DNA of 64,000 nucleotides from Octopus vulgaris. Taxonomy: Eukaryota. Location of the stretch: NCBI GenBank assembly GCA_951406725.2, contig OX597826.1:29388001-29452000 (forward strand), given 5' to 3'. Below are positions 9,496-63,152 of the stretch, one piece after another. The number at the start of each line of letters is the position of its first letter. Positions within the stretch are counted from its first letter, which is position 1. Position numbers and translations under genes: made by a program. The notes under the pieces are model-generated. The model was not told where the DNA came from and ran no database searches. It was given only the letters and a program-made list of their open reading frames with translations.

Positions 9496-9539
9496 CTATG
9501 AATGGAGCAAAGTAGTGTTTTGTAGGCAAAGAAACCAAT
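9496..9539 (-). CDS. Candidate terminal exon
   Basis: atacag|AT TGG...TAG, phase 1. Translates (Y)[19 protein letters not shown] on the - strand at 9475-9480. Confidence 0.45.
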
Positions 9540-12500
9540 CTGTATGGTTTTCGTTACTCTTTACAATTATCGTTAAAAATTTTTTTCAATGTATCATATA
9601 GATGTCACTTTTGATGCTAGATCTAAATTTCCTATTCGTTTATTCCAGAAAAATTTTGCAAAAACGTTACAGGTGTTCATCGTTTGATAATTTTCAACCA
9701 ATCAGAAAACAGTGCATTCATTGCCTCTTCCATCATTGGGAAGTGGGGGGGGGGGGCATCAGCATGTCAAGACATTCTTACGCACACATACTACTCACAC
9801 AAAGTTGAAAAGCTGTTTTTATTTTCATTTTCAGCATTGAATATTCACCATCCCACTTCCATTGCACACACATCTTCCTTTTACATACGCACACACATAT
9901 ACTCACACAGAGTTGAAACTCTCCCACTACCAGTTTGTCATCACCCCTTCCTTCCTTATTCATCTGTCACCCCTTCCTTTCTCATTCATATGTTATGATG
10001 GAGAAAAAACATTTTTCTAAAAGATTATCTTTGTCTTATCTTCTTCTCTTCCTTGTGTGCATGTGCAGCATCTTTGGTTACTATGGAAATACAGTTTATC
10101 ACCATGGTGATGTGTAAAATACTTGTTTCTGATTGGTTAAAATACCCAAATTTTGCAAATTTTAAAGGCTAATAATTTTTTAATTATGGATTTATAGAAA
10201 AAAAACGAACCTCATTTTCATAATTAGTAGATAACATTTAATCCATATTCCAAATTTGAAAACAATTGGAACAAAATCTTAAACAGTGACGAGAACCACA
10301 AAAATCCAAAGAAACAAACAAACTAGCAAAACAGAAAAATAATCCTTTGATACCAAATTGAGTACTTTGGTTGTTATGGAATAATATCAAAGGTGGTGGT
10401 GGTGGTGGTTGTTGGTTGAGGAGGTGGTGGTGGTATTTCAGTTTTCTGGTTGAAAGCAGGAACTCTGCCTGAAATCAGTTTAGAAATATAAAGGTTGTTA
10501 ATGATCAAATGATGAAAATTAGTTAAATTAGTTAAATATAGAAAACATCCAATATGAAGCTGGTAATTAACTGTATAACTGCATATATGCATCCTTATAC
10601 CCTTGTCTGAGACATTAACCACGCCTACTTATCCATATTCCTTGGCTTAATGAGACACTAACCACAACCCCATTCGTATACATCAGTCTAATGTAACATT
10701 GACCATATCCTCTTGTCCATATGACATTTTAATTATTAACCACACCTCTGGCCATATACATCACTCTAATTTAGCAGTAACCACACCTACTTCTTCATAT
10801 ATTGCATTTTAATTAGGTGTTAGCCACACCCACTTACCCTGTGTAGTGGTGTCGGTTGGTCTTAGACAAATTACCATGCTTAATTAAATTAAGATTATTT
10901 AAAACAGTGTTTGGTAAATTGCAACACACAGACTTTCTGAATGGCACCCCTAACAAAAGATAACCCTTAATTTTATTAGTAGTGCAGTCCACCTGATGAT
11001 GAACCATGTCTTAATGTGGCCCACTTCTCAAAAAAGGTTATCCATTCCCTGCTTTAGAATTTTTAAACTTGTCCGAATAACCATGGCTAAGAAAGAATTA
11101 CATAGATACAAACCCCTGTTTTGTCTTCTCATTAATAAAATGTGGGTGGAAAAGATTTTGGTAATTTTTGATGAAGGGTGTTACTGTATTAATGGTATCA
11201 AGTTTGGAGGGCTTGCAAATGTTATGGGCACTGCCCTGCCCCTGTCTTCAGACTCATCTTTTGTCTTTCCTTTCATTTTTTTTTCCATGTTTCATTCATG
11301 CTTGGGCATTGTCTTGAAGGGTTTTACTCAATCAGGTTGACCCCACTACTTGGTTTAAAGCCTGGTACTTATTATATTGGTCTCTTTTGCCAACCTATTA
11401 AATTACAGGGATATAAACAAACCAGCACTGGTTGTGATGGGGTGGGGAGACTGACATGAATATACACTTTTTTCTAATCTTTCTGTCTTTACACTCACTG
11501 GATTTGACAGGCCATGCAGATCCTTCATCAGGAATCTGCTCTGCACACCTCTTTCTATAATTTTCCCTTGTCCCCTAGCATGAAGATGAACCCCTCCCCC
11601 TCTCTCCAACACATTTCCCCCAGGGCTCGTAGTCCTGTCAACTGCATGGCAGTCTTAATAGTGCAGGTGACGAGAAAAAGTACCCAGTCCATACTGTAGA
11701 GTTATTGGTGTTATGAAGGGCATCCAGCCATAAAAACTATGCCGAAGTAGATATTGGAGCTTGATGCAGTCTTTGGACACAATGCATCCTGTCAAACTAT
11801 CCAACGCATGCCGTCATGGAACATGGACTTCGAATGATGATAATATCAAATAGATGTCTCTGTGTATGTGTGATGGGATTCCACACAATTTCTGTTTAAC
11901 AAATCCATTCACAAGGCTTTGGTAAGCCCGTGGTTGTAGTAGACACTTGTATAAGGTGGCATTCTGTTGGACAGAACCTGAAATTGTGCAGTTGCAAAGC
12001 AAGCTTCTTATCCCCACAGTTCAAGAACCATGGTATTACTCCCCCCGTTTATAGTTTCTGCTGAGAGACCTGAAAGTTCTTACCATTTTTATTTCAAATG
12101 TAAACACAGGGAACTCACTGATATACATGTCTGTAGCAACTGAAAGCATAAACCCTATGAAAATGCATTGGAACTTGAGATTTTGAATACTTACAAGCAA
12201 GGAACTGGTAACCGAGTTTTGTGAGAGATTTCTGGAGTTGTTCTTGATCGTATTTTTGCCAACATTCCAAGACAGAAAAGCACTTTTCTCGAAGAGATAG
12301 ATCGACACGTTTGTCAATGTTTACCTGTGTTTCTTCTGAAATACCCAGGTATGTGGCCAGTTCTTGCCATCTGATTGCCAGAGCTTTAGAACGGCAAAGG
12401 AAATCAAAGAATTTCTTTTTCTCACAATCTGCAAAAAACCATGGAATTTATGCATTCAATTAATTCGAAGTTTTCTATCAAATGTAAAACTTATTTATTC

Positions 12501-15500
12501 ACATTGTTTTAAATCAGTTAGACATTATTTTGTAGTTCTGAGATTTCAATAAGGTGGTTGTTGCATTTTTAGAAGGACATTGTAGGCAAATTTTGCAAGA
12601 AAATATGGCATCTGTGATTCATAGATGCCATACTTTTGTAAAAAGTTGCATACCCAGTGCTCTCCAACTGTCATTTCCACAATGTTCTATGGGGCCAAAG
12701 AGTGGGAGAGACAACAAAATGGTATCTATGTGTGCTTCTGACAACATAAACACCTGTTCTATATTTAAAAGATGAAAAATTATGTACATTATTTACATTT
12801 GATGGATATTTGTCCTCATCTTGTTAGTTGTTAACACAGCGTTTCGGCTGATATACCCTCCAGCCTTCATCAGGTGCCTTGGGGAAATTTCGAACCTGGG
12901 TTCTCATTCCGATGTTTTTATTATTATTCAGGTGACCTGAAAAATACCTTAGGAATGAGAACCCATGTTCAAAATTTCCCCAAGACACCTGATGAAGGCT
13001 GGAGGGTATATCAGCCAAAATGTGTTAACAACAAAAAAGATGAGGACAAATATCCATTGAATGTACATAAACACTGGTGTTTTAGCAAGACTGGTACATG
13101 ATACCATGCCACTTTCTCACACAAGTGATGGCTAATCTCTATGCTTAAGCGTGTGATTGATATTTATTCCATCATCATAATCATCATTTGATGTCTATGC
13201 TCCCAGTTGCCATGGGTTCAATTTTCTGACAGGTTCTGATTAGTTTAAAGTCTGCTTTGGTATGTTTTCTACAGCTGGGTGCCTGCCCTTCTTAGCACCA
13301 ACCACTTTACAACAAGTACTGAGCATTTTTCATGGCACCAGCACCAGTGAGGTTGCTATGCAGCTTGCAAAACTAAGATCCCTTTAACTGAATGAGGTTA
13401 CATTAAAGAAGATGGCAACTTTATGCAATGGAATGAAGGGTTAAAGTGTGAGAGAAACAAAGCAAGGCCCTGTATAGATAGCTGCTAATTAACAAAATAT
13501 AATTAATTATAAATATTTAAAAAAATTTCCTGAATATTTACCAGAGAGAGTTGTTTGACACTTGTAACTGTACTCTTCTTCTCTTGTGTTTAATTGTTCT
13601 GCAAGTTGTTGGTAGCCAAGGACTGAGAGAGCTGAAGCAAGGGGTTTTACCTGAAATGTTGGAATTTTGTTTTTATCAAACAGTTTCAGTGTACAAGGAG
13701 GCACACAAAAGTAACTGTAAATGTTTTCTGAGGGACAAGCCTGTTGTAGTTCAGGTTTCTGCCTTTAGAAGCAAGTTGATGTGACCCTCTGGCAGCATCG
13801 GGTGTAGTCCTACTGCCACGTTGTGCAATCTTTGTTTAGCGGTGCTTCTACTTTGTTCACTGATTTTTGCGATGGCTGAAATGATGGAACAGCCTGTTTC
13901 CGTGAAATTCTGTTTTCTGCTGGGGAAAACAGTGGCTGAAACAGCCTGTCATGCTTCAGACAGCTTATAACATTGCTGCCATGAGCAAAACATAAGTTCA
14001 CAAGCGGTTTTCATACTTTAGGAATGGTCACTTGTTGCTTGAAGACCAACCTCATTCAGGACAACTGTCCACCTCCCGAACAAATAAAAATATCACAAAA
14101 ATGCATGAACCAATCTTGAAGGACCGTCACTGAACAGTTGACGAAATTGATATGATTGGGCTGTCCTGGAGCTCCTGCCAATGAATTTCCTAAGCTGTTG
14201 ATGTTTATGTCCACGAATATATTTTACACCACACTAATTTGTAGCCTTTTCATACACATTCATATATGCATAAAAATATACATACAAATAGACACATGCA
14301 TATACACATAAACTTACAGACGGATATACACATGGACATATACAGAGTTCAAATCCTGCATGTATACATGTGTTAGTGGTGAGGTGAGAAACATTGTGAG
14401 GATGGTTGGTGAAATATAGACAAACAACAACTGGTGAATGTGTTTATAGGCTTTGCCAAATGTGATTTTTCCCAAATATTACAATATTGGTTTCAAAACG
14501 GTTTTATTCCTGCAAAAACAAATCCAAACTTATATATAAGAGATAAATATATTAGGTTGTTTCACATGAAATTTATTTTAAATGGGTTTCTTACGAGTCA
14601 TCTATAAATGGATATATAATGAGTTCCTAGGTATATGCTTGTGTTAAGTCTTAACTCTTTTTCTTTCAAGACAATTCTATTGTTCAAAATTGCTACCCAC
14701 AGCTCTTATAACAATGTTGACAACTGAACAATAACCGATTGATTTTCTTGTATGAATACAAGTTGGGTCACTCTGCCACTGAAGCTTTACAAAACATCAA
14801 GTGGGATTTTGGTAACGATTCTGTTGACATAATAACTGTTCAGAGATGGTTCCAAAGATTTCGTTCAGGAAATGAAAGCCTTTAAAATGAACCAAGAGGG
14901 AGACCAAAATCAGTTATTCGGCATGATGAATTAAATGTTTTGGTTGAATGGAATCTGAGAACAACGGTCCAAAAGATCGGATCAGAGCTCCAGATATCTC
15001 CCACAACTGCTTCTTGGCAGTTAAAGAAAATTGGAAAAGTCAAAAATATGGATAGGTTTGTTCCCCATCAACTTAATGAGATTCAAAGAAACAGATGCCT
15101 TACAGTGTGTTCCATGTTGATTTCTCGGTTGGAAAGAGAACCATTTTTGTATCAACTCATTATGTATGATAAGTGGATTCTCTTTGATAACAGCAGGAGG
15201 ACAGGACAGTGGTTAGATGCAGGAGAATCACTAAAACACTACCCAAAACCGCCATTGCAACCTTAAAAAGTTGATGGTCACTGTATGGTGATCAACAAAG
15301 GGGGTTATTCATTATTTATTTTTGCAACAAGAGAAAACTGTAACAGCAACATCCTATTGTCAGGAAATTAATTGTATGCATGAAAACTTAAAAAAGAAGC
15401 AACACGTGAATAGAGATGGCCCAATTTTGCTTCATTGTAATGCACGGCCTCACACTTCTCAAGCTACATTATGAAATTTTGGCACATCCTCCTTAATTCT

Positions 15501-18500
15501 CCTGATATCTCTCCAACTTATTATCGCGTATTTAAACACTTTGAGCTTGCTATACGCAATAAAACATTCTTAAATAAAGAAGAGGTAATTGAAGCATTCA
15601 AACAGTTTATCAGTGTAAAAGATAACAAATTCTTTGAAGATGGAATATATGCCTTAGAGGAATGTTGGATGAAGGTCGTAAATGAACAAGGATCATATTT
15701 TGATTAAATAAATGAATATTCTAAAACTTTAAAAACAATTTTAATGTTTCTTTTTTCAAATGCAACATTTCATGTGAGACAACCTAATATTTTAAGGAAC
15801 TCAAATATATATAAATAAATACTGAGTTGTGTGTTGTTGTTGTTGCGGTTATTGTAGTTGTTTAACTCCAGATCAACCTATATTAGCCTGTGGCCAAAGC
15901 TGTTCCAAGCATGACCATTCTGTCTCATATCTTTTTGTATATCCAGGACTACATTTTTTAATAAACCCTTCCTGTCATCAGAAATGGAAACTGTATGGAA
16001 GCCCTTATTGTGCATGCATATGTATGTGTTTGTCTCCATATGTCCACACATTGGCAGTGCTTGGGTAGTAGTGATGATGCTTTTCCGTTTCCTTCATAAA
16101 CTAATTGTCTGATAGTTTGGTACTTCAGTGTCCTGTGAAATAAGGTACCTTACACACAAATGAAGTTTGGTGGCTGACCATAGCATACCACTACAAGAAT
16201 TCCTCATTTCATCCATGCTAACTTTTAAAAAATGTGGATCTGAAAACTTTTTTAAAATGAGAGATTTTATATAAGAACCAGAGGCCATCTCAGACATATT
16301 GGTACAAAAAGAGTTAAAAGTGGCTTTGACCTTTAGCATACTATAGATGCATTATGTTACTGTATGAGTAATGTCCCCTTTCATTGCGATCCAGTGCACC
16401 TGCACTTATAGAGAAAGTGCGTATGGGACCATTATGCACCTATATGTGCCAAAGGTTTAAGTTATGCACGTGTGAGTGTGTATGCACTTATGTGCGCGTG
16501 TTTATGCATGTATATGTGTGTAGCAGAATGCTTTTGACGAAATATATACTGAAGGGAAGCTAGCCCATGGTTAAACAATAATAGCTACAATAACTGACCT
16601 TATCGCTTGTAACAGGTAGAGAGTTATGCCATGCCATTAACATGTTGAAACAGGCCACATGAGGAACTTTATCACTGGCAGTTGTCTTTATCCGTTTCAT
16701 AACCAGCCCTGAGACTTTCAGTTCTTGTGCCAGAAGTTGCCATTTGTTTCCAATAGCAGTTGATACTTGCAGAAGGAAATCTTTGTTAACAGGATCTTGG
16801 AAAGTAGAAAACGGTACAAATTTATGCATATACATTCAGGTATTCTTCTCCCATGTACATCTTTATACACACAAAAATGTACATGCACACATGCTTGTCC
16901 ACTCACAAAAACACATACATATATCCACATGTGTGTGAATATATATATATATATATATATGTATGTCTGTATGTACATATAAATCAAAATATACTATATT
17001 ATAGATCCATTTCAGTTAAAGTTACCAATAGGTTTCACACTAGATATTAGGTTACAGGGCAGTTAACTAATACACATGATGCTCTTCAGAGGTGGCAGGA
17101 AATAAATATATGTGCATCTGACTGGCACTCTGTTGGTTATGACAAGTGTTCCAGTTGATCCGATCAATGGAAAAGACTGTTTGTGGAGCATTCCACACAC
17201 ACGTGTACCCTCAGCACAGTTCTTAGGGGGATTCAATGTGATACAAGATGTGACATGGCTGGCCCTTTGAAACACAGGGCAGAGGACTACACATTTTTGC
17301 CAGATGAGTGGAGTAAAGCAATGTGAAATAAAGTGCCTTGCTCAAGGACACAATGTGTCCCCAGGAATCAAACTCATAACCTTATTATCTTGAGCCGACT
17401 ACTCAAATCCCTAGGCCACATGCTTTCATACACACATGCACATACATGTGCGCACACACATGCGTGCACACACACACGCACACATATATTATTGGATGAC
17501 CAATCCACCCTTTGCCGGGTTTTGTTTCTCATCCTGCAAACTGACCCCGAAACCAGCTTCTCATCAAGCAGACTTTGTAGGGTTTTAGGGTTTACTCACC
17601 AATAGCCCAGCCATGAGAAGATTGTTCTAGTTCACCTGATTACTAGTTGTAGGCCCCTGGTTATCAGATCTTTACCCTAATACACACACATTCATACACA
17701 ATCTCTTTATCACACACACACACATACACTCATACACTAGAGAGGGCGATAGAGGAAGAATAATGTCTGGAGTCTTGTGTATCTGATAAATTCTAATAAT
17801 AGAATCAATGCCATCCTACCTTTGATACATTGCAGCTGTTTCTGCCAGTCCTGGAAATGAAATAATAATAATAATAATAATAATAATCCTTTCTACTAAA
17901 TGCACAAGGCCTGAAATTTGTGGGGAGGGGACTAGACAATAACATCAGCCCCAGTGTTTCACTGGTACTTAATTTATAGACCTTGAAAGTATGAAAGGCA
18001 AAGTCAACTTTAGAGGAATTTTAGCTTAAAATGTCAATAATAATAATAATAATAGCTGATGTAGTACCAGGCACTGACTCTCGTGGCTTCTGATCTTAAC
18101 TGATTGGAAGTGTTTTGTACCTTGTTTTGTCTTGGTATTAAAGATGGGCTACAGCAAATATTCTGCTCAATACCACAGGTTTGCTTGTCAGTTGTTTGAC
18201 CTTAACCAGTTGAGCATGTCCTTTAGTGGCTGACGAAAACTGCACCTCTGATCACAAGTAGAAGTAGTGGGGGAGCATCATAGCCATGTGTTGAGAGGAG
18301 TTCTTTGGGATTTGGATAATTCACATCTGAGAACATGGGTGTTTCGTTTAACATCCTTAAACAATCTTATTCAGGGACTATTTGAGCAGGATGGACGACT
18401 CAACCAAGAGAAAATTCTAACTGGGCACCATCTACAAGGTCATGTGCTGTTTATCTTGATATGAGATCACCATGTTGCACAAATATGGTTGTGATGCATG

Positions 18501-21500
18501 TGCCTGGTGTACCCTTATCAGACGGGTAGTTATGATGGGTACACTGGGCTTCGTATATTCTACCCCAGTGTCACTTTGAGAGTATGCACTGCTCTCTCAC
18601 TCAATAATAATAATATTGGTTTCAAATTTTATTACTTTGCCAGCAATTTCTGTGAAGGGGATAAGTCAACTACATCGACCCCAGTATGCAACTGGTACTT
18701 AATTTATTGACCCTGAAAGGATGGAAGGCAAAGTTGATCTCAGTGGAATTTGAACTCAGAACATAGCGACGAGTGAGATACTGCTGAGCATTTCGTCCAG
18801 CACACTAACGATTTTTCTAGCTCACCACCTTAACAACAACTGTAATAATAATAATAATAATCCATTCTACTGTAGGCACAAGTCCTGAAATTTTGGGGGA
18901 GAGGCTAATCGATTATATCGACCCCAGTGCATAACTGGTACTTATTTCATTGCCTCCGAAAGGATGAAAGGCAAAGTCAACCTCGGTGGAATTTGAACTC
19001 AGAGAGTAAGTACGGACGAAATGCTCACTGCCTTAACAATAATAATAATAATGATAACAAGAAATATTGTTTCTCTCATTACATGTGTATGTTTGTGTGT
19101 GTGTGTGTGTGTGTAAATATATGCATACTCACCCACAGTATGTGTGGTGGCTTCAACATATACACAGTTTCACATCTGGATTGAAATGAAATAAAATGAT
19201 AATTGAAAGCATGCATGCATCAGATATAAGTATTGTATTCATAAATATTATACATACAAGCATCTGTGAAAATGTGAGCATACGCACATGTGAGCGTTGG
19301 TGCACTCATGATCACAAAGCGAGTTAACTATCTACTTGGTGTTTGTAAGAATCGTTATCGTAACTATGTCACCAGCTTTAAGACAAATCAATAAGAGACA
19401 GTCAACATCTTTGGCCGATTTTGTAGGGCAACTGAAGGAGAATAAAATGAAGTACAGCATAACTTGGTCCATAGTAAGGTACACGAAACCATACAATATA
19501 ATTTCCAGGAGATGCTGTCTCTGCTCCGAGGAATCCCTGTCTATTCTGTGGACCAATGAGAAGATCATTAATAGACTCTCCATCCATTAGGATGTGAACG
19601 AATATTTGTCAATTTTTTACCCTGAAGAGATTTTTTACCATTAAAATGCATAATGCAATCCGAATTGCATAATATGAATCAAGGTAAGAAACTGAAATGT
19701 ACGTAGGTGATATGAAATTGACTATTATATAAATAAATTGATTTTTTTCTGTGTTCAAATGCTTCATTTTCCTTATATTGTATATATATATATGCATCAT
19801 ATACATACATCACACATAGACACACAGTAATATTGAGTTCAGACTTTGGTACAAGTCAATCAATTTTGTGGGAGAGGGCCAAGTTGATTACATCCACCCC
19901 AGTGTTCAACTGGTACTTATTTTATTGATTCCAAAAGGATGAAAGGCAAAGTTGACCTTGACGGAATTTGAACTCAGAATGTAAAGATCAATTAAATACT
20001 GCTAAGCATTTTGCCTGGCATGCTACTGATTCTGCCAGCTTGCTGCCATTAGACACAGAGTAATATCAAGTTGAAGAATCATCATAAACGGGCATACTAC
20101 CACCACACGCACACAGGGTAAATATTGGGTTGGTGCATAATTATTGAAGACTTTTTCTTCAACAAATTTTATTCAACAAAAAATAATAATAATATTTAAC
20201 AAAAAACATCTTTAAATGACGGTCTGACGGTCTGACTGTCTGCCAAGCAAATGGGAAGCAGTAATTGAAGTAGATGGTGAATATGCTCCGGAATAATCAT
20301 TTAAAGATGTTTTTGTTACATGTTGTTATTGTTTTTGTAGAATAAAATTAGTTGAAAAAAAGCCGCAATAATTAAGCACCAACCCAGTAATAACAACAGT
20401 GAAGAATATACATTATACACACACATACATATACCATATGGATACACAGATATTTGTCATTATCATCATTGCTTTAACATCTACTTTTTCTTGTTTGCAT
20501 GGGTTAGATGAAATCCACTGATACAGATTTCCAATGGCCATATGCTCTCCCCATCAATACAAACATGCAAATACAACTGGTGCTCCATCGGTTGTGATGA
20601 TGAGCATTCCAGTTGATCCCTGCCCGGGAAGGTAATGTGCAAGGGAGATTCAGCATGACACAGAATGTGACAAGGCTGGCCCCTTTTAAACTGGGGTAAC
20701 GTGAAATAAAGTGTCTCGTCCAAGGACACAATGTGTCATTGGGAATTGTCCTCTCAACCTTACAATCATGAGCCGAATACCTTAAGCACTGAGCCAAGCG
20801 CCTTCACATGCATATACACTCCATATGCATAAACACACACACACACACACAGACACACACACACACTTACACACACACATACATACACAAAATCACACAC
20901 ACACAGATAAAGACACACAGACACACACATACAGACACATGCGCACACAAACACATGCACACACACAAATACACAGACACACACAAAAGCACACACACAG
21001 ACGCACAAAATCACACACACACAGACACAGACACACACAAGCACACACACACACACACAATTGCACGATGAGCCCTTTTTCAATTTCCACCACATTATGT
21101 CAGGTGTTGAGAGGCTGAAGAATGACAGAGGAACAGGCGCAGTTAATTTACCAAAGAGAAAACAAATGGCTACCCTCTATTATATGACTGATGCATCAAT
21201 AATTATTTTTTGTGTGATCTCCAGTGCATCACAAAGTTTAAAACATTAAGAACCACTGCACAAGTTATAGCAGCCAAGCCTCCCTCATATTACTCTGCTG
21301 ACACAGAAAAAGGAAGGACACATTAGACAATGCATGTCAAGATACACCAAGCCTGAAAAAATGTAGTCTGGAATGATTACAGCCAAGACTGTCCCATCTT
21401 TTATTTTTGATTTCTAATTACATAAATCGGCTCTTTTAGGATTAACACTCACAGTGATAATTCCTTTTTATTTTTGGTCAAAGGCCAACAAATTTTGAGG

Positions 21501-23449: not shown

Positions 23450-23907
23450 TGTATATATACATGCATACATATATATACATTCATACAAGCATGTGTGCAC
23501 ACACACAACACACACACACACACACAGATCTTGAGAAAAGGTGAATGAATGACATAACCAATGTTTTTTGTAAGCACCCGGCAAACCCACAAGACAACAA
23601 GTTGATGTTGGTAAGAACAACAGCAACGACAACAATAATATGAGAGCTGCAGCAGTAATGGGAAAAACACTTCTATGGCTTTGGTTGAAGAGATGCATTT
23701 CTGTGTGTTACCTGGAAATGTATTATTGCTTGTAGTAGAAAAATGGACTGTGATTGGTTGCTGCAAATCTATGTTGAAGGTGAGGAACAACTGAGGTATC
23801 GGTTGGTAAGGGTTTAACTAGAAGAAAACATGGTCACAGTATCAACTATGCAACTAATAATAATCATAACAACGACAAAAATAATGACAACAACAACAAC
23901 AATAATT

Positions 23908-50028: not shown

Positions 50029-52080
50029 ATGCATGTATATGTATATATGCACATATACATATGTACCTGTTTTTTCTATTTACAAACACACACATATATT
50101 ACAGACAAGAAAGTAAATTTTGAATGCAGTAAATCTGTGAGGACTGCAGAGAAATATTGGGTGTTTATCCTTATAAGACAGAAAAAAATTGACAGTCAGC
50201 GGCTATGGGAATTGAACCCTTACTCCCCAGATACTCTCTGATTCCTCGTAAGTGTAAGCTATAATTTTCGTCTGAATGCATGCTGTTCTTAATGATCGGT
50301 GATGGTCTACCTCAGTCACGACTGGACAGCTATCATACAGACAGACACACACACACACACCCATATCTACCGAGTATATTGATCTAAAAATGTCTTACCA
50401 ATTATTTGTAGTCATATCTTTGATTTCAATATTGGTCAAGAACCAATCTGGACTTTTACCTTCACTGTCATGCCAAAGTTTTAGAGACTGCAGTGGCCCA
50501 AGATGGACATTGGTTTGCAAAATAAAATCTGACATTGTTCCACTCCTGAAATTCTGTAATGATCATCACCAGAAGAAAAACAAAAGGAAGAAAATATTAA
50601 TAACATCAGCAACACTAACAACAACAACCACGTGGAGGCGCAATGGCCCAGTGGTTAGGGCAGCGGACTTGCAGTCATAAGAATGCGGTTTCAATTCCCA
50701 GACCGAGCATTGTGAGTGTTTATTGAGCAAAAACACCTAAGCTCCACGAGGCTCCGGCGGGAGTGGTGGTGAACCCCGCTGTACTCTTTCACCACAACTT
50801 TCTCTCACTCTTTCTTCCTACTTCTTCCACAAAGCAGAGGAACCATGGTGTAACCCACTTTGGTGTAATAAACTTTCAGACTCTAGTCTAGATTGCGAAT
50901 CCTCTGTACCCCAGGATGGTTCAGCTCCCCACCTCTTAAATGCCACCATTTACGGAATGAGGATAACAACGTAGCTTTCATGCCCATGCAACTGCCAGTC
51001 TATTGCATGTGGTGGGTGGATCTTCAAGTTGCTACACACATTCTCAGTAGCTTAGAGTAGGCTCGAATTAGAGTTTATTCTTTATGGCTGATGGCGTGAG
51101 ACAACAACCACTGATTCAAAGTGTTATGGTGTACATGTTTTATCTTGGTATAAAAGATGGGATACAGCAAATACTCTGCTCAATACTATAGATTAACTTG
51201 CCAGTAGATTGAGAATTTCTCTTTGTGGCTGACAAGATGTGCATATCTGATTGAAAGCAGAAGTAGTGAGGAAGCATCGTAGCTATGTGTTGAGAGGGAT
51301 TCTTTGGGGCTTGAATACATCACCTCAGGAAACATGGATTTTGTTCACCATTCTTAACCCTTTAGTATTTAAACCGGCCATATCCGGCCAAAATAGTTAA
51401 TCTGTTTTCTGTTCAGACTGACCAAATCCAGGCTCTCACACCTACCCTACAATGTTATTCTACATTAAGTAATTACACTATCAAGATCTTGAAGATATGG
51501 GATAATGCATGATTAATTCAAATCAATGGGAATCAATAGGCATTATGTTTGATAGAATAATCTGAACACTAAAGGGTTAAACAACCCTTATTCAGGGACC
51601 TTTTGAATGGTATGAGGTACTCAACCTGAAGAAAACTCTAATAGGGTCCCACCTGCAAGGTTGTGCACTGTTTATCTCAATAAGCAGTCAGTGTGTCGTG
51701 CACATATGGTTGTGATGCATGTGCCTCGTGTAACCTTATTAGATGGGTAGTCATAGCGGGTATATCGGGCTTTGTATATTTGTACCTCAGTGTCACTTAG
51801 ATGGTGTGTAATGCTCTCTATACAACAACAACAACAGCAATAATAATAATAATAATAATAATAGTAATAATAATAATAATAATAATAATGATCCTTTCTA
51901 CTATAGACCCAAAGTCTGGAATTTGGGGGTGAGGATTAAGTCAATTACATTGACCCCAGTGCGTAACTGGTATTATTTAATCGACCCCAAAAGAATGAAA
52001 GGCAAAGTCGATTTGGTGGAATTTAAAATCAGAATGTTATGACTGGCAAAATACTGCTAAGCCTTTCCTCCAGCATGCTA

Positions 52081-52121
<41 letters not shown>

Positions 52122-52122
52122 C

Positions 52123-52153
<31 letters not shown>

Positions 52154-55100
52154 GTGGTGAATAAATACTGAAGCATAAAAATTTATAAATAAATAAAATG
52201 AAAGAAAAGATAGGTAAATAAAATGAATTTTCTTTCCATTGACTGTACAACTCCTTACATATGTAGAAAACTGAAATGAGATTGTGTGAGCTTCATGCCT
52301 TAGCCAAGAGTATCTATGGTGTAAGTTAAGAAACTTGCCTTCAATTATAACATATAGATATACAAATACAAACTGAACAAGGAACAAAATAGAACTCAAG
52401 ACACTTCAATGTCTGGCCCACAGATATGCTGTGACCCTTCTTTGTCTCTTCCATTTGTACTACAATAATCTCTGCTCTATCAGGGCTGTTGGTCTTGTAC
52501 CAACTCTAATTGAACAGATCCTATTTAATTGTATTTCCTTTCCCATCACCCAAATTGTACCCAGACCCTTAGCTCTTGCACTGACGATTATTCCCAGTCT
52601 TTCTTCCCCAGAACATTGGCTTTTTGGAACTCCCTCACTGTATCAGTCGCATTGGTCTTCGACAATAATAACCGAGAGCCAATAAGGGAAAGGGGAAATT
52701 CTAATGCAGTTACTCAAACTGATAGAAATGTGAGCCAATTCTCAATGAAATTGTACCATACTGTCTCACAGAAAGGAGAGACAGACAGAAAATATACCAT
52801 GTCTGATGCAAAAGCTGTTGGTGACAGCTTTGTACACCTTTGAGCATTTGGAGCTAAGTAAAAACAATTCGTCCTAATTTTAGCACACATTCAGCCGTTT
52901 TGAGGGGAGGGGGAAAGTCAATTACATTGATTCCGGTACTTGACGGGTACTTTATTGTACCGACCCCAAAAAAATGAAAGACAAAGTTGACCTAGGTGGA
53001 ATTTGAATGCCTAATGCAGAGAACTGAATGTAAAACAAAAATCTAAAGATGGTACTGTTTGTTGATTGCATACTTACTTTTCTGACGCCATCTTTGAGAA
53101 TTCGTATGTCGGTCTTCCCTGATTTTCCTTTCAGTAAAAAATATGGAGTGGCCGTAAAGGAGCGTGGTGATTGTATTCCAGTGTATACTCTTAGTAGATA
53201 CAAATATTTATCTTTGGCTACGTTGTCTACCAAAGGTAGGAATTCCCACTACACAAAAATGGAAACAGAAAATTACGAAAAACAGCAGAGACAAACAGTC
53301 GAACGGTTATCAATTGCTTCCAGTTTTTATGCATGACTCTTTGGAAACTGATGGATAAATATTTGGGAGAAGCTAATTTATAAGCTGTATATATGGCAAG
53401 AGGCTATAGTAGAAGACACTTGCCCAAGGTGCCACGCAGTGGGACTGAACCCGGAACCATGTGTTTGGTAAGCAAGCTTCTTACCACACAGCCACTCCTG
53501 TGCCTATTTATAAATATATACATATTTACACACACACACACACACAGATATATATATGATATATATATATATATATATATATATATCCATAAGTGGAACA
53601 ACATCGCAATAGAGTACAATAAAACATTCGGACAGATAGACGATACAAGGTGGACAAGAGAAACAACAATTAGAAGGACAGGCCAAAAAATGACGGTTCA
53701 TTCGTGGCGTTTTTCCTCAGTCAAGTCCCAGAAGACATGACGGTTTCAGGTAGATAAACTAGTTTTGCTGGTAAATTTGAAATGTTTATATTAATTTAGC
53801 ATTAGAATTCTTCAAGTTGTATAAAAATAGTTATTGTCTGCATCATACAAAAGAGAAATAAATTCTGCATAAGGTGTAAAAGATAAAAATAATTTGTATG
53901 GTGTTAGCAACAAAATATTTTGTAAGAAATAGAACTTTTATCGTTGGTCTTAAATTTATTTTCGCCAGTGTATATATATATGTATATACATATTTATTTA
54001 TATATATATACACACACATATGTATATATATATCGCTGCCTAGACTGGCTTCCGTGCCGGTGGCACGTAGATCCCCGGTTGAACCGTCCAACCCATGCTA
54101 GCATGGAGAACGGACGTTAAACAATGATGAACTATATGTATATATATATTTACATATATAAATCTCTTTTACTTGTTTCAGTCATTTGACTGCAACCATG
54201 CTGGAGCATGCTGGAGCACCGCCTTTAGTCAAGCAAATCGACCGCAGGACTTATTCTTTGTAAGCCTAGTACTTATTTTATCAGTGTCTTTTGCCAAACC
54301 GCTAAGCTATGGGGACGTAAACACACCAGCATTGGTTGTCAAGCAATGTTGGGGAAACAAACACAAACACACAAACAAACACACACACATATATATACAT
54401 ATACATATATACAATGGGCTTCTTTCAGTTTCCGTCTACCAAATCCACTCACAAGGCTTTGGTCGGCCTGAGGCTATAGTAGAAGACACTTGCCCAAGGT
54501 GCCATGCAGTGGGATTGAACCCAGAAACACAGCCACTCCTGTGTCTATGTACATATTTATATATATATATATACATGTGCATCCAATAACATTGTAATTA
54601 TTCCACGTCCTTGGGTTGCTGTTTTTTCTTGCTTGTTCATGTTTGGATATATATATATATATATATATGTTGTGTGACGGATGAAGAGGACAACAGAAAA
54701 AGAGAAGGAAATACAACGGGCCTTACCTCAGCGAAGATCAGATCTCTCTCAACAAAGTCAATGCGTCTCGTCGCTTCCTCGTCTCAGCTCCAACTGCCGG
54801 CTTCGTTGATCTCACACGTGCGTGCTGCCTCACCGCTTCCGCTTCCCACCACGCATGTGCCCTGCAAGCCCTACTTCCACCCTCCCTTATCTGTTGTCCT
54901 CTCCACCGACACCCCCCCCCCCCCCTGATCTACAGATCCCTGAACCGGCTTTCTCACTCGCTTCCCGCTCCCGAACTCACACCTTAACTGGTTTCATAAT
55001 CAGCCAACCAGGGAGGAGGGTGCCGTTCCCTCTGTGGTCGCAGTGCGACCCTAGGACTGGTTCCTGGCATGTTGCTGCTGGCCTCATTATCCTGTCTACT

Positions 55101-58100
55101 GGTGTTGTTTTCATCTTGCCCACTGCTGCTGGTTCCATCCTCTGAGGCATGGACAATCCTCCGTATATCCAAAACGTGGCGTGGCATACCATCGACCGAG
55201 ATGCTGTGCCATTATCCAGAAGCAGTTCATCCACGGGGCTTCGTTCCAGGAATATCTCATTTAATACTTTCACAATTTCTTCTGCAGTCCCCATCTTCAT
55301 CTCCCTCCATATGGCCAACCGCCCCGGTCCGCAGTCAACCATTGAGAGGTATGTCCCCTGCCGGTAGTGTGTTATGTCCACCGCCAGTCGTTTCCAGTCA
55401 TGGTCCACTGGAATACTTCCCGCTTCATGTACGCCCGGGTCGATGGACTGGCACCTGTCACAACTGCTAACCACTCTCTGCACGCTCTGTCTTGTTACAT
55501 TGGAGTCAACTTTTCTGGCTAGGAACAATGTCCTGTCCACACCCATGTGATGCATGGTATGCTGTCTCCGCAACTCCGAGTCGCTCAGACGGCATACAGC
55601 AGCTACAGCCTGCTTCGCATCCTCTGGCACCTGCAACCAGGCTCGCTTTACCCTGGTCAGGACATCTGCCCTGTTCTTCTCGGATGGCACAAAGATCACG
55701 CTCAGCTTCAGATTGAACTCAGTGGTTAGTTCATGCAGTATTCCCAATTGACGCTTTACCAGCATCTCTGCAGCCCCTTTGGTCTGCACCCTCCGCTCAT
55801 TGATGATGACTGCTGTCACCCAACCAAGTACAGTGGCCGAATCAGTCCTGATTTCTATGGTGTGCAACCTACACTTCAAGGCTAGGTTCACCCCCTTCAA
55901 CACGGCATCCAACTCCGCCACATTGATGTGATTGCAGTCATCTATCTTCCTGAGCCAGGCTGCATCTTCCACCATGACACCTCCCACTTCTAAGACAACC
56001 CCTGATGCGATGCTACTAGCGTCACACCATACAATTCCGCTCTTTGATTTGGGAACATACCAGCTGCCCCTCACTGGGTCCTCTGCTCCTACTCTGACCA
56101 AGACTTCCTGCATCATGTCGATCGTCCTCTCCCCCACTCTATCATTCCACTTCACTCCTTCGGCTCGTCTCTTGATGAAGCTACATGCTGTCCGGAGCCA
56201 ACTTGCAACCGGGTAGTGTCCCACCAGCTTCCCACACATAGAGAACAGTTCCCGTCTACTCATGCTGGCGCCCAGTTCAGGGACCTCATTCCCTCACCGG
56301 AACACCAACGCGCCGGCCTTGTCTCTCCATAGCTTGAGGCCCAGTGCGGCACCTCTCTCCATTGCCTCTGGTGGTTTGGCGATCAGTCCAAAACTCTTCA
56401 GGTGGCCTACGATCTCCGTTGCTGGCATTACGGTTTCATCCACCAGAATGTCATCGATGTATGAATTGGTGGCCCTTTTTACTCTGTCCACCTTTCCCAG
56501 GATGGCCTTGAGAATTGTTGCCATAATCTTTGGCGCTGAATTCAGCCCGAACCCCAACCTGGTCAGACAGTACATCCGGCCCTTATACATGACAAGCTGG
56601 TACTTCCACAATTTCTCAGCCACATGCACCTGTAGGTATGCCGACTTCAAATCAACAATCGTGGAGGCCCCTGTCATCTGCCTCCACTCTTTCAAGGTGT
56701 CTCCGCAGACATCTGTGGCCTCGCTGCCTGTATGACACGATACGTGGTCATTCAGCTCTCGGAAGTCAAGCACTGGCCTGACCTTATGCTTTGTGGGCTG
56801 TATCACCGCCATCAGTGGCAGGACTACGCTCTCTTCTTTTTCCCAAGGGATCAATATGCCCTCCTTAATCCACTGCTGCACCTCCCCCTCGAACTCACTT
56901 CTGGCATCTCCTTTTAGAGTATGCTGATAGTAGCCCACTTTATTCTTTAACATCGGAGCTCTCCCTTCCAGTGCCACTTCACTGTCCACCTCTTGCCATC
57001 AAAGACAGCCCGAAAATCCTGGTCTTCAATGGTGTGCGCAGCATGCTTTTCCTCACGGTTGTCACTGGTGCATGGTCTCACCCTACATGGTTTCCCCGCT
57101 AACCCAAACGTTACACCAGCCTCGTTAACGGTGACACCTCCCAAGCGGGTGACTGCATCCATCCCCATCACCACGTCAATCTCGTCCACCAAGTGATCAA
57201 CCACAATCGCTCGCAGCGTCAGCTGTAGTCCCTGCACTACAATCCGCGCATCTGTAACCCCTTCGCAGTGTACTTCTCTTCCGTCGAAAGCTCTAACACT
57301 GCTTTCTCCACTCTATGTCTCTGCCACTTCTGTAGTCATCAGGGTTGTCGTACAGCCCGTGTCCACAAGGGCTCGCGACATCTTCCCCTCCACCAGAATG
57401 TCGACCACAGGTAGCGACGATAAACGTGCCTCTACTGATCCGAAGGGACAATACCGGCGCAGTAGTCTCCCTCAGTCCGTTTCCCCACAGGCACTCGCTG
57501 GCTATATGCCCCGGTTCTCGACACCGGTAGCAAATCACCTCAGGCTTGGGTGACTCGCAGTCACGCACATTGTGCGGACCTTGGCACCGGAAACACTGTC
57601 CTTTGAACGGTCGCACACGTTCTTTCTTTGGCCCCTCTCCGTTGCTCCTAGCTCGGCCACTTTTCGAAGTTGCAGTCACTGCTACCGACGTCCTTCTGCT
57701 GCACGAAACTAATACGCGTGCCCGAGATATGATGTCCGCCATCGGCATCGCATGAACATTTGGAAGCTACTGTAGCTCGACCGACATGTTATCAGGAAAG
57801 CCAGTCACGGACGCCAACCTAACCGTCTGGTCCAGCGACTCTCCCTCATAACCTGCCAGTTTAGCCAATCTCCTAAGTTCATTGGCAAACACATCCACCT
57901 GTTCCCCAGTCCATCTTGTTCTACCCAGGTGAGCGTATGCCTCAAACATTCCCTCCGCAAAGGCCTCCATCAACCGGATTTCCACTTTCTCCGTGCTGAG
58001 TTGGTCTGTCTCCTCCATCTCTAGGTACAACACCAATGCCGGACCATCCAAGTACAGTGGCATGAAGCTCGCCAGGTCACTTATATCATGGAGCTTCACC

Positions 58101-61100
58101 ACCAACTTCACTTTCTTCAACCAAGTGACTACATCTGTGTCGCCGCAAAACGGTTGTATCATGTCATGCAAAATACGGGCACTCATCATTCGTTTTTTTT
58201 TTTGTTTATAACGACGAAATAGCTTGTAGTGTGACGGATGAAGAGGACAACAGAAAAAGAGAAGGAAATACAACGGGCCTTACCTCAGTGAAGACCAGAT
58301 CTCTCTCAACAAAGTCAATGCGTCTCATCGCTTCCTTGTCTCAGCTCCAACTGCCGGCTTCGTTGATCCCACACGTGCGTGCTGCCTCACCGCTTCCGCT
58401 TCCCGCCGCGCATGCGCCCTGCAAGCCCTACTTCTGCCCTCCCTTATCTGTCATCCTCTCCACCGACACCACAATATATATATGCACACACATATGCACA
58501 TATTATCTTTATATAACCTCTATCTTCCATGCTGGTATAGGTCGGACATATATCTATGTATGCACATGCATACCCTTACATGCATGTACATACATGCCCA
58601 TACACACATACAACACACACGCAATTTACACATAGAACTGGGGTTTTTTCTGTTTCTGCCTATCAAATCCACTCACAACTCATGCGTTTTCTGCATGGAG
58701 GAAAGTCATATGCCATGGAAAACAAGTAACTGGCCTCACAACTCCTAGGAATTGTTGCATTACTTACTTTATGTTAAAAGAAGAATGTAAAAGAATGTGT
58801 TTGCACTTACATTGACTCTGTCATGCTTGTCTAAATGTCGAACAAAAATAGCCAACACACAGTATATGATAAATATGACCAAAAGTACAGCTAAGATGAA
58901 TGGGTTTTCCAAGATTTTTTCATCCAAGTTGAAGAATATTTCATCAAAGTCAAGTTTGCCGGGTGTAATGATTTCAATAACTGAAGTAAAAGTGCCAAAA
59001 AGGTTGCTTTCTAACACCAAATTATAATTGGTTTCCAAGGCTTTAGTCTAGAAAATAAGTAAAGAAATTGTATACATGCTTGTAATCATACAATGTGTGA
59101 TCAATAAGTATCTGGACTGTTGTTATAATAATGAACCTAAAGCCTACTGAGTGACACTACTTAGCATAGATTGACCTTAAACTCAGCTGTGCATGCGTGC
59201 TAAGTTTTAACATTCTAGTTCACTTCTGTGAAGGTGTGTAGTGTGTGATCGTTGCACGGAGCATAACAGAGATACCTGCTCAGAGGCCTACGCAAAGTTG
59301 CAGAAAGTATGGAGAGGAGTGTATGAGCCGCATTCAAGTGCATGAGTGGTTCAGATGTTTCCAAGATGGCTGGAAAAATGTCAATAGCGATGAAGTTCTG
59401 GGAGACCTGCAACCAGCAGAACTGAGAAGAACATTGCAGCTGTGCGTGGAGCTGTGAGGGCAAATAATCGAAACACCATCCGTCAGTTATCAGAGGATAT
59501 GCATTTTAGTTATGGTTCAGTTCAGCCCATTACCACGGATGATTTGGGTATGAGACGTGTGTCTGCCAAGTTTGTGCCAAAACTGTTTTCGGCTGACCAA
59601 AAAGACACTTGGGTTTCAGTTGCACAAAATCTCTTTGATTCTGTTGAGAACGATGAAAACTTTCTGAAATCTTGTGTAGGCCTCTGAATAGGTATCTCCG
59701 AGCTTTTGGCAAAATTTGATGCCGATTCTCTGCTCAGCTTTCTCTGTCATGGTCAATTCAATGATCACATGCTACACACCTTCCTTCCCAGCACTCTTGT
59801 AAACAGCAGGAAGTGAGCTAGAACGCTAAAACTTAGTGCACATCTACAGCAGAGTTGAAGAACAATCTGTGCCAAGCAGCTTTACTCTGTGTGCCTTAGC
59901 TTCGTCACTATAGCAGCAGTCCAGATACTTATTGATCAGACCACATACATACGAGTGTCCTGAAAAGTTCCTGGCTTTGGGGTAAAGGGAAATACAGAAG
60001 AGTCAGTTAAATATGATTTTATTCAACATATTCCCCTCTCAAATTTACGCATTTATTCCAATAGTCCTTCAGTTTTTTTAAGCCCAGTAAAAGAACTTGG
60101 AAATTTAGGCATTCAGCCTGGCATTTCACTATACCCTTAAAGCCAGGATTTTTTCAGCACCCTTGTCGTACATGTATATGAGGAGAGACAATGCAAATCA
60201 TTGTTTTATACACTAGAAATGACCTTGATATCTGGGATAATAAATATCTGCAAACCTTCTTAAAATTTAATGGACAGTGAACAAAACAAAATGCTTTCTT
60301 TCACAACCTTGCCACCAAATAGGTGATTGGTTAAAATTTACTGTAAATTAAACACAAAAATAGAACATGCATGCATACATACATTCATACATACATATAT
60401 ACATGCATACATACATACATGCATACTTGCATACATATATACATGCATACATATATGCATACATGCATACATAATGCATATGTGCATGCACATATATATG
60501 CATACATACATGCATACATATGTATATGCATATATACATGCATACATACATGCATACATGCATACCTACATTCATGCACACATTCATACATACATGCATA
60601 CATGCAAATATATATACATATATTCATACATACATACATGCAGGTATACATATATACATACATGCATACATACATATATACATGTATGCATGCATACATA
60701 CATATATGATGCATACATGCTTGCACATATACATGCAAATATATATACATTACTGTAAATTAAACCGAAAAATAGAATATGCAGGCATACATACATACAT
60801 ACATACATACATACATACATACATACATACATACATACATGTATGCATACCTACATTCATGCACACATTCATACATACATGCATACATGCAAATATATAT
60901 ACATATATTTATACATACATAATGCATGTAAACATACATAATGCATGTAAACATACATACATATATATACATACATGCATGCATACATACATATATACAT
61001 GTATACATGCATACATACAAACATGATGCATACACACTTGCATTCATACATGCAAATATATATGCATATATTTATACATACATATATACACACATGCATA

Positions 61101-61803: not shown

Positions 61804-61881
<78 letters not shown>

Positions 61882-63152
61882 GTATATATATATATATATA
61901 TATACATATATACTATATGCGAGTAACAAAGATGTACAAGTGTCAATTCATTATGGCTGTTTCAAGTGGCTCCTTGATAATTGAAAACATTACATCATTG
62001 CAAAGAAACCGTTTTTGTCAGGTTGACTTCAAACACAAAGGACCAACTAACTGCTTTAACATATTCATATCACCAACTGGAGCTCAAATATTTTTCTTTG
62101 ATTTTGCAGTTGTTTCTTTGGCAGAATGAGTTTAGAAATCAGCCTATGTATTGTCAAGGCTACAAGAATTTAGAGGTTAGTAGAGGTTATAGTGAATTTT
62201 ATGGAAAAAGTATAAATTGTCACAAATTTATAAACTACAAAAATGTTAAAAATATATTAGAAAGGATAAAGAAGGCATAAAAATATATAGAAAATATTAA
62301 AATAAAATAGAAGAATTTATAAGATATAATGCATAATTAAAAAATAAATAAACCATGAGAATATGTAAAAAGGTATATAAAGGTAAAGAATATAAAAATA
62401 AAAAATATAATTTTTATAAATATGTGACAATTTATACTTTTTTCATAAAATTCACTATATACTGTAATTTTATATTACTATATTTCTTAATTTCGTAGAC
62501 GTATATTGTCGTTCAATGCTTGAAATGAGGAGTGTATAAACATCTAACAACTGATGAAGGGTCGTTCTTTATGTTACTTGTCCTGTTTTCCATTTGTTTC
62601 TCTCATTGTTTACGTATAGAACTCATTTGTTTTCGCATTTCATATTGTTTACAATTGGTGACGTCCTGTACCCATGTATATATATGGATGGATACCCTTC
62701 CTAACACCAACCACTGCACAGAGTGTATGAAGCATCATCATCAGTGCTTTATGCATGACACAAGCATGAGTGCTTTGTGTGGCGCGAGTGTGGGTGTTTT
62801 ATACATGACACTAGCACAGATACTTTATATGTGTCATCAGCGTGGACACTTTGTTACATGACACCAGCATGAGTGCCTTATAGGTGGTACCAGCATGAAT
62901 CCTTTTTACATGGCACCAGCAGGTTTGCTTCTTATGTGGCAACAGTACTCATGAGCTTTGAAGGAGGAAAATGCAAAATCAAGCATTGGCAGTATTTGAA
63001 CTCTCTCACTTTAGGTTGTCAACATACCTTTATATCATTGTTTGGTTTCTTATTTTTTCTTCCATCATCATAAACATGTGGAGTGAAACTTACAATTTTC
63101 GTCTGTAAATTACGTGGTATACTTCTCTTTTGGATACTTCCATCTGTTGCCT
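36846..63152 (-). CDS. Polycystin-1-like (PKD1L-type) gene, 11 exons: GAIN/GPS end, TM1, PLAT, TM2-5, TOP, TRPP channel domain (5' part outside window)
   Basis: Phase-consistent GT-AG exons: 63028-63152, 58811-59047, 53078-53248, 50399-50553, 48504-49152, 45729-45843, 43487-43725, 43049-43223, 41019-41102, 39683-40273, 36846-37391. Polycystin motifs include [98 protein letters not shown] and [14 protein letters not shown]. Confidence 0.9.
37950..38742 (+). mobile_element. 5'-truncated RTE-clade LINE with 21-bp target-site duplication
   Basis: Open ORF to 38670 ([29 protein letters not shown]-terminal C2H2 CDTC...HSH). TSD acacagaataagaatggtatc at 37929-37949 and 38743-38763. Confidence 0.92.
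39683..40273 (-). CDS. PKD1-like exon: TOP domain and S2-S3
   Basis: GWKIGAKQ...AFKYTSEEK...[12 protein letters not shown]...[24 protein letters not shown]...LVKNP|gtaaac. Confidence 0.92.
40768..41000. repeat. (GGT/GAT)n microsatellite
   Basis: Compound trinucleotide tract. Similar tracts at 23880-23975, 43370-43453 and 52080-52160. Confidence 0.9.
41019..41102 (-). CDS. PKD1-like exon: TOP domain
   Basis: tttcag|[27 protein letters not shown]|gtaag. Contains the C...C..YS...ED...Y.PGW motif. Confidence 0.88.
43049..43223 (-). CDS. PKD1-like exon: TOP/polycystin domain
   Basis: [21 protein letters not shown]...[16 protein letters not shown]|gtaaat. Confidence 0.9.
43487..43725 (-). CDS. 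PKD1-like exon: channel S1 helix
   Basis: [57 protein letters not shown]...EKFSQ|gtaaat. Confidence 0.85.
44640..45400 (+). mobile_element. Helitron 3' remnant (Pif1 helicase C-terminus)
   Basis: Degenerate [16 protein letters not shown] and [21 protein letters not shown]. Possible 3' end cacgggtcccgttagt near 45400. Confidence 0.7.
45729..45843 (-). CDS. PKD1-like exon
   Basis: ttctag|[38 protein letters not shown]|gtaaat. Continues the QPLK motif; phases fit both neighbours. Confidence 0.85.
47249..48242 (-). mobile_element. Tc1-like transposase, frameshifted
   Basis: [20 protein letters not shown] (HTH) ... [17 protein letters not shown] ... [20 protein letters not shown]. Confidence 0.88.
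48504..49152 (-). CDS. PKD1-like exon: PLAT end and TM2-TM5
   Basis: Within ORF 48462..49166. [16 protein letters not shown]...FTRVQRLS...[14 protein letters not shown]...VQPLK|gtcag. Confidence 0.92.
50399..50553 (-). CDS. PKD1-like exon: PLAT domain C-half
   Basis: tacag|[51 protein letters not shown](W)|gtaag. Confidence 0.9.
53078..53248 (-). CDS. PKD1-like exon: PLAT domain N-half
   Basis: Translates [57 protein letters not shown]|gtaagt. Confidence 0.9.
54668..58473 (-). mobile_element. Compact Gypsy/Ty3-like LTR retrotransposon, defective
   Basis: About 249-bp direct LTRs at 54668-54916 and 58225-58473 (TG...CA), ATATA flanks in a TA microsatellite, and a poly-G PPT near 54917-54925. 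Coding content: gag with two CCHC knuckles, protease ALVDTGC, RT YIDD, RNase H ([24 protein letters not shown]) and integrase HHCC plus VDITHY/LLLDNG. Order is PR-RT-RH-IN, with stops/frameshifts and a truncated integrase. Confidence 0.93.
58811..59047 (-). CDS. PKD1-like exon: GPS end plus TM1
   Basis: ttctag|ACT...AAT|gtaagt. Translates [79 protein letters not shown]. Confidence 0.88.
59089..59947 (+). mobile_element. Internally deleted mariner element
   Basis: TIRs (tgatcaataagtatctggactg / cagtccagatacttattgatca). Transposase remnants [16 protein letters not shown] and [16 protein letters not shown]. Confidence 0.8.
59950..60170. mobile_element. Mariner-type MITE
   Basis: Inverted termini gtgtcctgaaaagttcctggcttt / aaagccaggattttttcagcac. 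Confidence 0.6.
60365..61150. repeat. (CATA/TGCA)n low-complexity tract with an internal duplication
   Basis: The segment tactgtaaattaaac..aaaaatagaa occurs at about 60340 and about 60751, each followed by CATA arrays. Confidence 0.8.
63028..63152 (-). CDS. PKD1-like exon (end of GAIN region / first half of GPS position)
   Basis: ttccag|AG GCA...ATA AAG|gtatgt. Translates [41 protein letters not shown]; phase 0 fits the next exon. An alternative donor (gtaagt) would end the exon at 63094. Confidence 0.6.

Follow-up and report, generated by a model that had tools for sequence, protein, structure and literature searches.

A predicted Octopus vulgaris gene in which a PKD1-like polycystin probably carries a DTHD1-derived cytoplasmic tail

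Introduction

Can a single gene join a polycystin receptor-channel to a signalling module built of ZU5 and death domains? The question is raised by a window of 64,000 nucleotides of Octopus vulgaris DNA (assembly GCA_951406725.2, contig OX597826.1, positions 29,388,001 to 29,452,000 of the forward strand; positions below count from its first letter). For this window an earlier note, made from the letters alone, had proposed a polycystin-1-like receptor/channel fused to a ZU5-ZU5-death-death tail. That proposal largely stands: fused gene models occur in three octopod and two abalone species, with a common deletion of the size of a UPA domain, and we consider it very likely that the fusion itself is real. 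As far as sequence comparison goes, the fused gene is probably an ancient molluscan variant of the PKD1-like polycystins whose tail derives from DTHD1. There is no settled view of how PKD1-type tails signal, and little is understood of DTHD1, which has been linked to retinal dystrophy, cilia and MYD88. The sources cited below by PMC or bioRxiv number were available in part, and what is said of them refers to those parts.

Results

Guided by the orthologues, 24 GT-AG exons on the minus strand were joined from 63152 to 10374 into a single open frame, 1,612 codons long and closed by one stop; the open exon chain of the earlier note was thus recovered, its count of 23 exons was not. As 1,608 of the 1,612 encoded residues (99.8%) match the fused O. 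sinensis RefSeq model XP_036364125.1, which comes from an independent species, the open frame is not a product of chance. One window exon matches an O. vulgaris protein model at 99%. The window product is 91% identical to that of O. bimaculoides and 65% to that of Argonauta, and residues 1-692 (O. sinensis numbering) map to exons up to ~ 82 kb past the right edge of the window. The gene had been thought to end near 9496; the orthologue models finish in an exon at 10468-10374, and a site near 9495 yields no more than a short alternative end that keeps the frame. An exon considered at 19545-19335 was dropped, being present in no orthologue model. The exons, all on the minus strand, are the following.

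Exon 1 in the window, 63028-63152, minus: residues 693-734 (O. sinensis numbering), end of the ectodomain
Exon 2, 58811-59047, minus: degenerate GPS strand (without Cys, His or HL-T/S) and transmembrane segment (TM) 1
Exon 3, 53078-53248, minus: first part of PLAT
Exon 4, 50399-50553, minus: PLAT (Pfam PLAT, E 1.9e-7)
Exon 5, 48504-49152, minus: end of PLAT, TM2-TM5
Exon 6, 45729-45843, minus: loop after TM5
Exon 7, 43487-43725, minus: TM6 (S1)
Exon 8, 43049-43223, minus: polycystin (TOP) domain
Exon 9, 41019-41102, minus: TOP domain
Exon 10, 39683-40273, minus: end of TOP, S2 and S3 (Pfam Polycystin_dom, E 5.6e-21)
Exon 11, 36846-37391, minus: channel S4-S6, weak phase-1 donor (Pfam PKD_channel, E 4.2e-12)
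Exon 12, 35410-35465, minus: 56 nucleotides, start of the cytoplasmic helical linker
Exon 13, 34030-34277, minus: helical linker and first strand of ZU5a, with the conserved Trp common to DTHD1-like proteins
Exon 14, 31197-31383, minus: ZU5a, A-rich weak acceptor; the O. vulgaris annotation breaks here
Exon 15, 26857-27018, minus: ZU5a, including an acidic insert
Exon 16, 25397-25579, minus: last strand of ZU5a and start of ZU5b
Exon 17, 23712-23817, minus: ZU5b
Exon 18, 21725-21827, minus: ZU5b
Exon 19, 19133-19175, minus: end of ZU5b, with no UPA after it
Exon 20, 17820-17850, minus: short linker before death domain 1
Exon 21, 16599-16795, minus: death domain 1 (Pfam Death, E 1.5e-4)
Exon 22, 13542-13650, minus: end of death domain 1 and connecting helix
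Exon 23, 12195-12428, minus: death domain 2 (Pfam Death, E 8.1e-5)
Exon 24, 10374-10468, minus: Pro/Thr-rich end and stop codon

At the junction between channel and tail, the final exon of the channel closes in phase 1 at 36846, as read before; unspliced read-through past it meets a stop after 22 codons. The 2.5-kb gap that follows, in which no start exon of a second gene had been seen, contains a 56-nucleotide coding exon (35465-35410) that the earlier note did not include, the peptide of which is partly conserved in Argonauta. The models of O. sinensis, O. bimaculoides and O. vulgaris use this exon and resume in the linker exon at 34277 rather than 34351; with a matrix built from the fusion gene's own splice sites, the acceptor at 35465 scores 9.6 and that at 34351 scores -1.4. 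The direct path first suggested, from 36846 to 34351 or 34369, is in frame as well and is not the one taken by the orthologue models. A 54-nucleotide version of exon 12 joined to 34351 also keeps the frame but is unsupported.

A search for the combined architecture in other molluscs, which the earlier note had called for, returned fused models in both octopods and abalone. The octopod ones are those of O. bimaculoides (UniRef A0A0L8HQF0, RefSeq XP_014770430.1), O. sinensis (XP_036364125.1) and Argonauta hians (GAB1601804.1). Of 1.84 billion representatives searched with a profile, 54 matched, and among the 33 of the 50 new matches to which Pfam was applied one combined PLAT, Polycystin_dom, PKD_channel and Death, namely XP_071110902.1 of Haliotis cracherodii; H. 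rufescens XP_046351489.2, in the same cluster, is fused too. Many of the other matches are free-standing mollusc, annelid and brachiopod proteins with one or two death domains at their end, and one of these relatives bears the name death domain-containing protein 1.

The tail domains are 93-97% identical to those of O. bimaculoides, on a par with the channel. Compared with Argonauta, ZU5a is the least conserved tail domain (50%), while towards abalone both ZU5 domains are only 19% identical and the death domains 26-29%. When the abalone protein was compared with the octopus genome, its summed tblastn score was 515 at the fusion locus and 158-252 at paralogues, whose stretches are partial. Furthermore, five fused proteins separate from three octopus paralogues in a tree of the channel region (support 100/99), and the fused proteins separate from two octopus paralogues in a tree of the stretch from PLAT to TM5 (support 89/93), both trees being unrooted, with long branches and few paralogues, none of them from abalone. 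The GPS position has neither Cys nor His in all five fused proteins, whereas the paralogue on contig C4 has both, and 65-67 residues separate ZU5b and death domain 1 in 4/4 fused tails versus 226-307 in 17/17 free-standing relatives. Together, the trees of the PKD half, the common degenerate GPS and the common spacing argue for one origin. The split between cephalopods and gastropods is Cambrian.

The identity of the tail was next assessed domain by domain. On the window exons as well as on the full proteins, Pfam identifies PLAT, Polycystin_dom, PKD_channel and two Death domains, as had been expected; the ZU5 family, also expected, matches no fused protein, and ZU5 is recognised here by profile and structure comparison. 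The death domains match the folds of PIDD and FADD, the structure of death domain 1 aligning with the FADD death domain at Z 13.1 and a root-mean-square deviation of 2.7 over 98 aligned residues, and the fused death pair aligns to the DTHD1-like pair with 99.2% probability. The beta region is colinear with the DTHD1-like ZU5-ZU5 region (hhalign probability 77%, score 43.6 compared with at most 22.8 in 40 column shuffles). A profile dominated by free-standing DTHD1-like proteins matches the ankyrin-2 ZU5-ZU5-UPA-death structure (4D8O) at E 7e-32, and a profile of four fused proteins reaches the same structure weakly (E 0.001). When 54 other proteins were scored with a hidden Markov model (HMM) built from the fused tails alone, the best 22 reached 5.7-23.9 bits, mostly over one region at the ZU5a/b boundary, versus at most 4.6 in 1,080 shuffles. 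HMMs built in the reverse direction, from the DTHD1-like ZU5 region, did not match the fused tails, which counts against the assignment. AlphaFold models of three octopod tails had a mean pLDDT of 39, and Foldseek matched them to nothing at or below E 0.001. When 17 DTHD1-like rows were included, the tail model rose to pLDDT 63 and matched ankyrin ZU5-ZU5 (E 7e-10), a match which is partly circular and was therefore counted only as compatible. ZU5 clusters in Atlas at 0.75-0.76 were taken as a lead only, and Atlas gave no usable match for channel plus tail. Given the profile alignments on one side and the negative Pfam ZU5 and reverse HMM results on the other, we regard the death domains as solid and the tandem ZU5 as probable, with moderate confidence.

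In its order of helix, ZU5, ZU5, death and death the tail is closest to the two-death-domain DTHD1-like proteins of lophotrochozoans and not to ankyrin; of the ankyrin-like tail first described, the tandem ZU5 and the death folds remain and the kinship with ankyrin does not. The ~ 180 residues of the UPA domain are lacking from both the octopod and the abalone tails, and the UPA region aligned to the fused tail with an hhalign probability of 0.18%. In lophotrochozoans the DTHD1-like proteins fall into two subfamilies, distinguished by having one death domain or two (P0029, P0030, P0043 and P0057 versus P0009-P0013 and P0015-P0019), and the fused tail has the two-domain arrangement. A free DTHD1-like gene lies on octopus contig C8 (death-domain exon G000:C8:6772536-6772736, nearest to the one-death-domain type) and abalone also keeps one; the fused copy is therefore a duplicate.

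The rest of the protein is that of a PKD1-like polycystin, its closest match in the PDB being polycystin-1 (E 9.6e-51). Its ~ 2,300 residues comprise an ectodomain with PAN-like and Cys-rich modules, a Thr-rich stalk and a GAIN-like region, followed by 11 TM. Hydrophobic segments number 11 in one fused protein (P0007), 11 plus a signal peptide in abalone, and 12 as called in Argonauta, two of them adjacent. In the full fused protein PLAT follows TM1 (830-934, E 6.9e-15) and the last six TM carry TOP and channel (Polycystin_dom E 3.9e-35, PKD_channel E 6.4e-16). Hence the TRPP subunit of the earlier note is of the PKD1 type, with 11 TM, and not a PLAT-free TRPP2/PKD2 channel of six TM only. The ectodomain has no Pfam REJ or PKD-repeat match at E up to 10 and no Pfam GPS match, and the HL-T/S self-cleavage motif is missing at the GPS of the fused proteins. 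REJ or PKD repeats are typical of PKD1-like ectodomains but not universal, and PKD1-like proteins have 11 TM, a short C-terminal tail and PKD2-like partner subunits (PMC5318412). Channel activity does not require GPS cleavage, and PKD1L1 and PKDREJ do without the motif (PMC9672506). Because its cytoplasmic tail, with four folded domains in ~ 600 residues, is not short, the fused protein was filed as a PKD1-like variant and not as a plain member. In a BLAST comparison with the tail of the C4 paralogue, the alignment of the octopod proteins does not reach past S6 into the linker, and the heptad score of the linker is high only in abalone, so it is named helical and not a proven coiled coil. The same genome has a PKD2-type gene on contig C9. 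In all, at least four other polycystin loci were observed (contigs C2, C3, C4 and C9), three PKD1-like and one PKD2-like; a 2026 survey of cephalopod TRP channels lists one TRPP per species (PMC13402157).

Several other features lie in or near the introns. Intron 2 holds a long terminal repeat (LTR) retrotransposon at 54668-58470, with direct repeats of 246 nucleotides that are 95% identical and with pieces of zinc knuckle, reverse transcriptase and RNase H, each in a separate broken frame. In intron 13, a 150-codon stretch at 33057-33506 without stops on both strands is a degenerate 15-nucleotide tandem repeat, which has no Pfam match and occurs in no orthologue model. A plus-strand open frame of 264 codons at 37876-38667 in intron 10 likewise has no Pfam match; we take it to resemble the C-terminus of a long interspersed element (LINE) reverse transcriptase. 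At 59242-59454 there is a fragment of a mariner-type transposase helix-turn-helix (Pfam HTH_48, E 2e-4).

Discussion

The fusion has to be weighed against the possibility that neighbouring PKD1-like and derived DTHD1-like genes were wrongly merged by predictors, or that the fused transcript is a minor form, which we judge improbable. A number of observations weigh in that direction and against the fusion as read above. The O. vulgaris annotation divides the locus into three proteins, and the annotation of Sepia pharaonis has a piece with the tail only (P0014). Several splice sites are weak. Among 23 donors the phase-1 one at 36846 has the second-lowest score (3.0), and two acceptors, at 31383 and 25579, are weak too. 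The first of these, that of exon 14, scores -2.7 and is preceded by an A-rich, pyrimidine-poor stretch (31384-31480); the O. vulgaris annotation breaks here, which may reflect either an error in the local assembly or regulation of the site. Splicing across the junction is predicted from comparative gene models; all fused orthologues are such models, four of them from RefSeq with independence not assured, and the Argonauta model is without most of death domain 2. Finally, the PKD-half trees have the limits given above, and in the death-domain tree, with its long branches, the fused tails do not form one group (6% of bootstrap trees). On the other hand, even the split O. vulgaris annotation links channel exon 10 to exons 12-13 in its first piece, and its break falls inside the first predicted ZU5a strand, the Trp of which is nearly invariant among fused and free relatives. 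The gap holds two AATAAA in 2.5 kb, level with the intron background of 1.06 per kb, and among 6,359 shorter candidate proteins a search found three matches, each of them a piece from O. vulgaris, but no tail that was both complete and on its own. Moreover, two separate genes would need identical adjacency, frame and UPA loss in octopods and in abalone.

If the fusion is real, its tail could still be structural, anchoring or trafficking the channel at the axoneme, the cortex or the spectrin network, with death domains that serve self-assembly and not signalling; this is possible, yet we think it unlikely. To our knowledge ankyrin death domains have no established death-signalling role, which would suit such a tail, as would the match of the DTHD1-like ZU5-ZU5 region to ankyrin-2 (4D8O) and the report of DTHD1 in motile-cilia preparations, where it is linked to an axonemal component (PMC12310455). 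However, it is the UPA of ankyrin that touches spectrin directly (bioRxiv 10.1101/2020.03.04.976142), and a spectrin-type anchor is weakened by its deletion here; the ZU5 domains also diverge more than the death domains, as the identities above indicate. A dependence receptor or PIDD-like switch, in which ZU5 keeps the death domains shut or cleavage frees them to activate caspases, is improbable. ZU5 and death folds are so used by UNC5B, PIDD, CARD8 and NLRP1 (PMC3210808), and the tail death domains do match the PIDD and FADD folds, but UPA is present in all those systems and missing here. In addition, PIDD cuts at HF/S right after each ZU5 (PMC3210808), whereas no such motif stands at the ZU5 ends of the fused tails; their sole HFS lies in the middle of ZU5b in octopods and is missing in abalone. 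The missing UPA and the absence of HF/S at these ends thus weaken an UNC5- or PIDD-type switch, and both roles floated in the earlier note, the ankyrin-like anchor and the dependence receptor, have lost ground.

By analogy with its relatives, the fused protein may instead be a probably uncleaved PKD1-type subunit whose tethered DTHD1 module serves as a dock for partners with death domains, possibly at cilia, a proposal to which we would give an even chance. Its cytoplasmic tail is probably a copy of a DTHD1-like gene that was captured long ago and lost UPA. Like other PKD1-like proteins, it would pair with a PKD2-type subunit, here that of octopus, to form a receptor-channel, presumably without self-cleavage at the GPS. 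The two ZU5 domains might form a rigid stalk presenting the two death domains, to which MyD88-type adaptors with death domains of their own would dock. A cue from outside, mechanical or chemical, could in this way be coupled to a death-fold pathway, or damp it, probably in ciliated cells. The human DTHD1 death domain binds MYD88 and lowers NF-kB activation (PMC10011749), human DTHD1 is found in motile cilia (PMC12310455), and polycystins are ciliary while DTHD1 is among the Leber amaurosis genes (PMC7615029). It counts against the proposal that the MyD88 and cilia links each come from one human paper on a distant relative.

A full-text literature search, covering matter other than figures, bioRxiv supplements and most subscription papers, did not find the polycystin-ZU5-death architecture described. 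In its available part the 2026 cephalopod TRP survey is silent on death and ZU5 domains, and the TRPP accessions that it lists belong to other genes (PMC13402157). An abalone TRP survey has eight TRPP1-like genes, which may include the orthologue, and no death domain in the text and legend available (PMC12980990); the supplementary domain figures of both surveys could bear on novelty. The corresponding parts of PMC8260672, PMC12677090, PMC12919962 and bioRxiv 10.1101/2021.11.14.466824 hold nothing on the architecture. One UniRef record is already titled 'Death domain-containing protein'. Since the architecture was thus present, unnoticed, in public annotations, what is new is its recognition, its DTHD1 origin and its age.

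That the fusion was kept in octopods and abalone suggests that PKD1-type and DTHD1-type proteins act in one pathway, an idea testable in mollusc tissue and, with the proteins unfused, in human cells. If true, a channel subunit would have its own death-domain output, an arrangement not found described in the literature searched, and the fusion would reveal DTHD1-type proteins as effectors of PKD1-type receptors, possibly for the unfused human proteins too. We advance only tentatively, and as a doubtful prospect, the full form of this idea: that a polycystin subfamily older than the divergence of cephalopods and gastropods puts an ion-channel receptor in direct connection with a death-fold signalling platform, and that DTHD1-type proteins are natural ciliary effectors of PKD1-type proteins, perhaps also when unfused in humans.

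Relation to known proteins

With PKD1, PKD1L1-3, PKDREJ and C. elegans LOV-1 the fused protein has in common the 11 TM, PLAT after TM1, TOP and channel, and a large ectodomain; it differs from these PKD1-like polycystins in its folded tail of ~ 600 residues, in having no Pfam REJ, PKD-repeat or GPS match, and in a GPS without Cys and His. The DTHD1-like proteins, such as Lingula XP_013383289.1 and Haliotis XP_071113807.1, have the ZU5-ZU5 region and the death pair colinear with the fused tail, and the same connecting helix. They are free-standing, with a long acidic or coiled N-terminus and a UPA region, whereas the fused copy is without UPA and tied to an 11-TM protein.

UNC5 and PIDD are, like the fusion, a receptor or sensor with ZU5 and a death-fold output. 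UNC5 is a single-pass receptor with one ZU5 and UPA, and the fused protein is not of that single-pass ZU5-UPA-death form; PIDD has leucine-rich repeats, UPA and HF/S self-cleavage, and neither has a channel domain. The ankyrin ZU5-ZU5-UPA-death structure (PDB 4D8O) has the tandem ZU5 and death folds in common with the fused tail. Unlike ankyrin, the fused protein is without UPA and without ankyrin repeats, as Pfam gives no Ank match in fused proteins, and it has two death domains that are covalently joined to a channel subunit.

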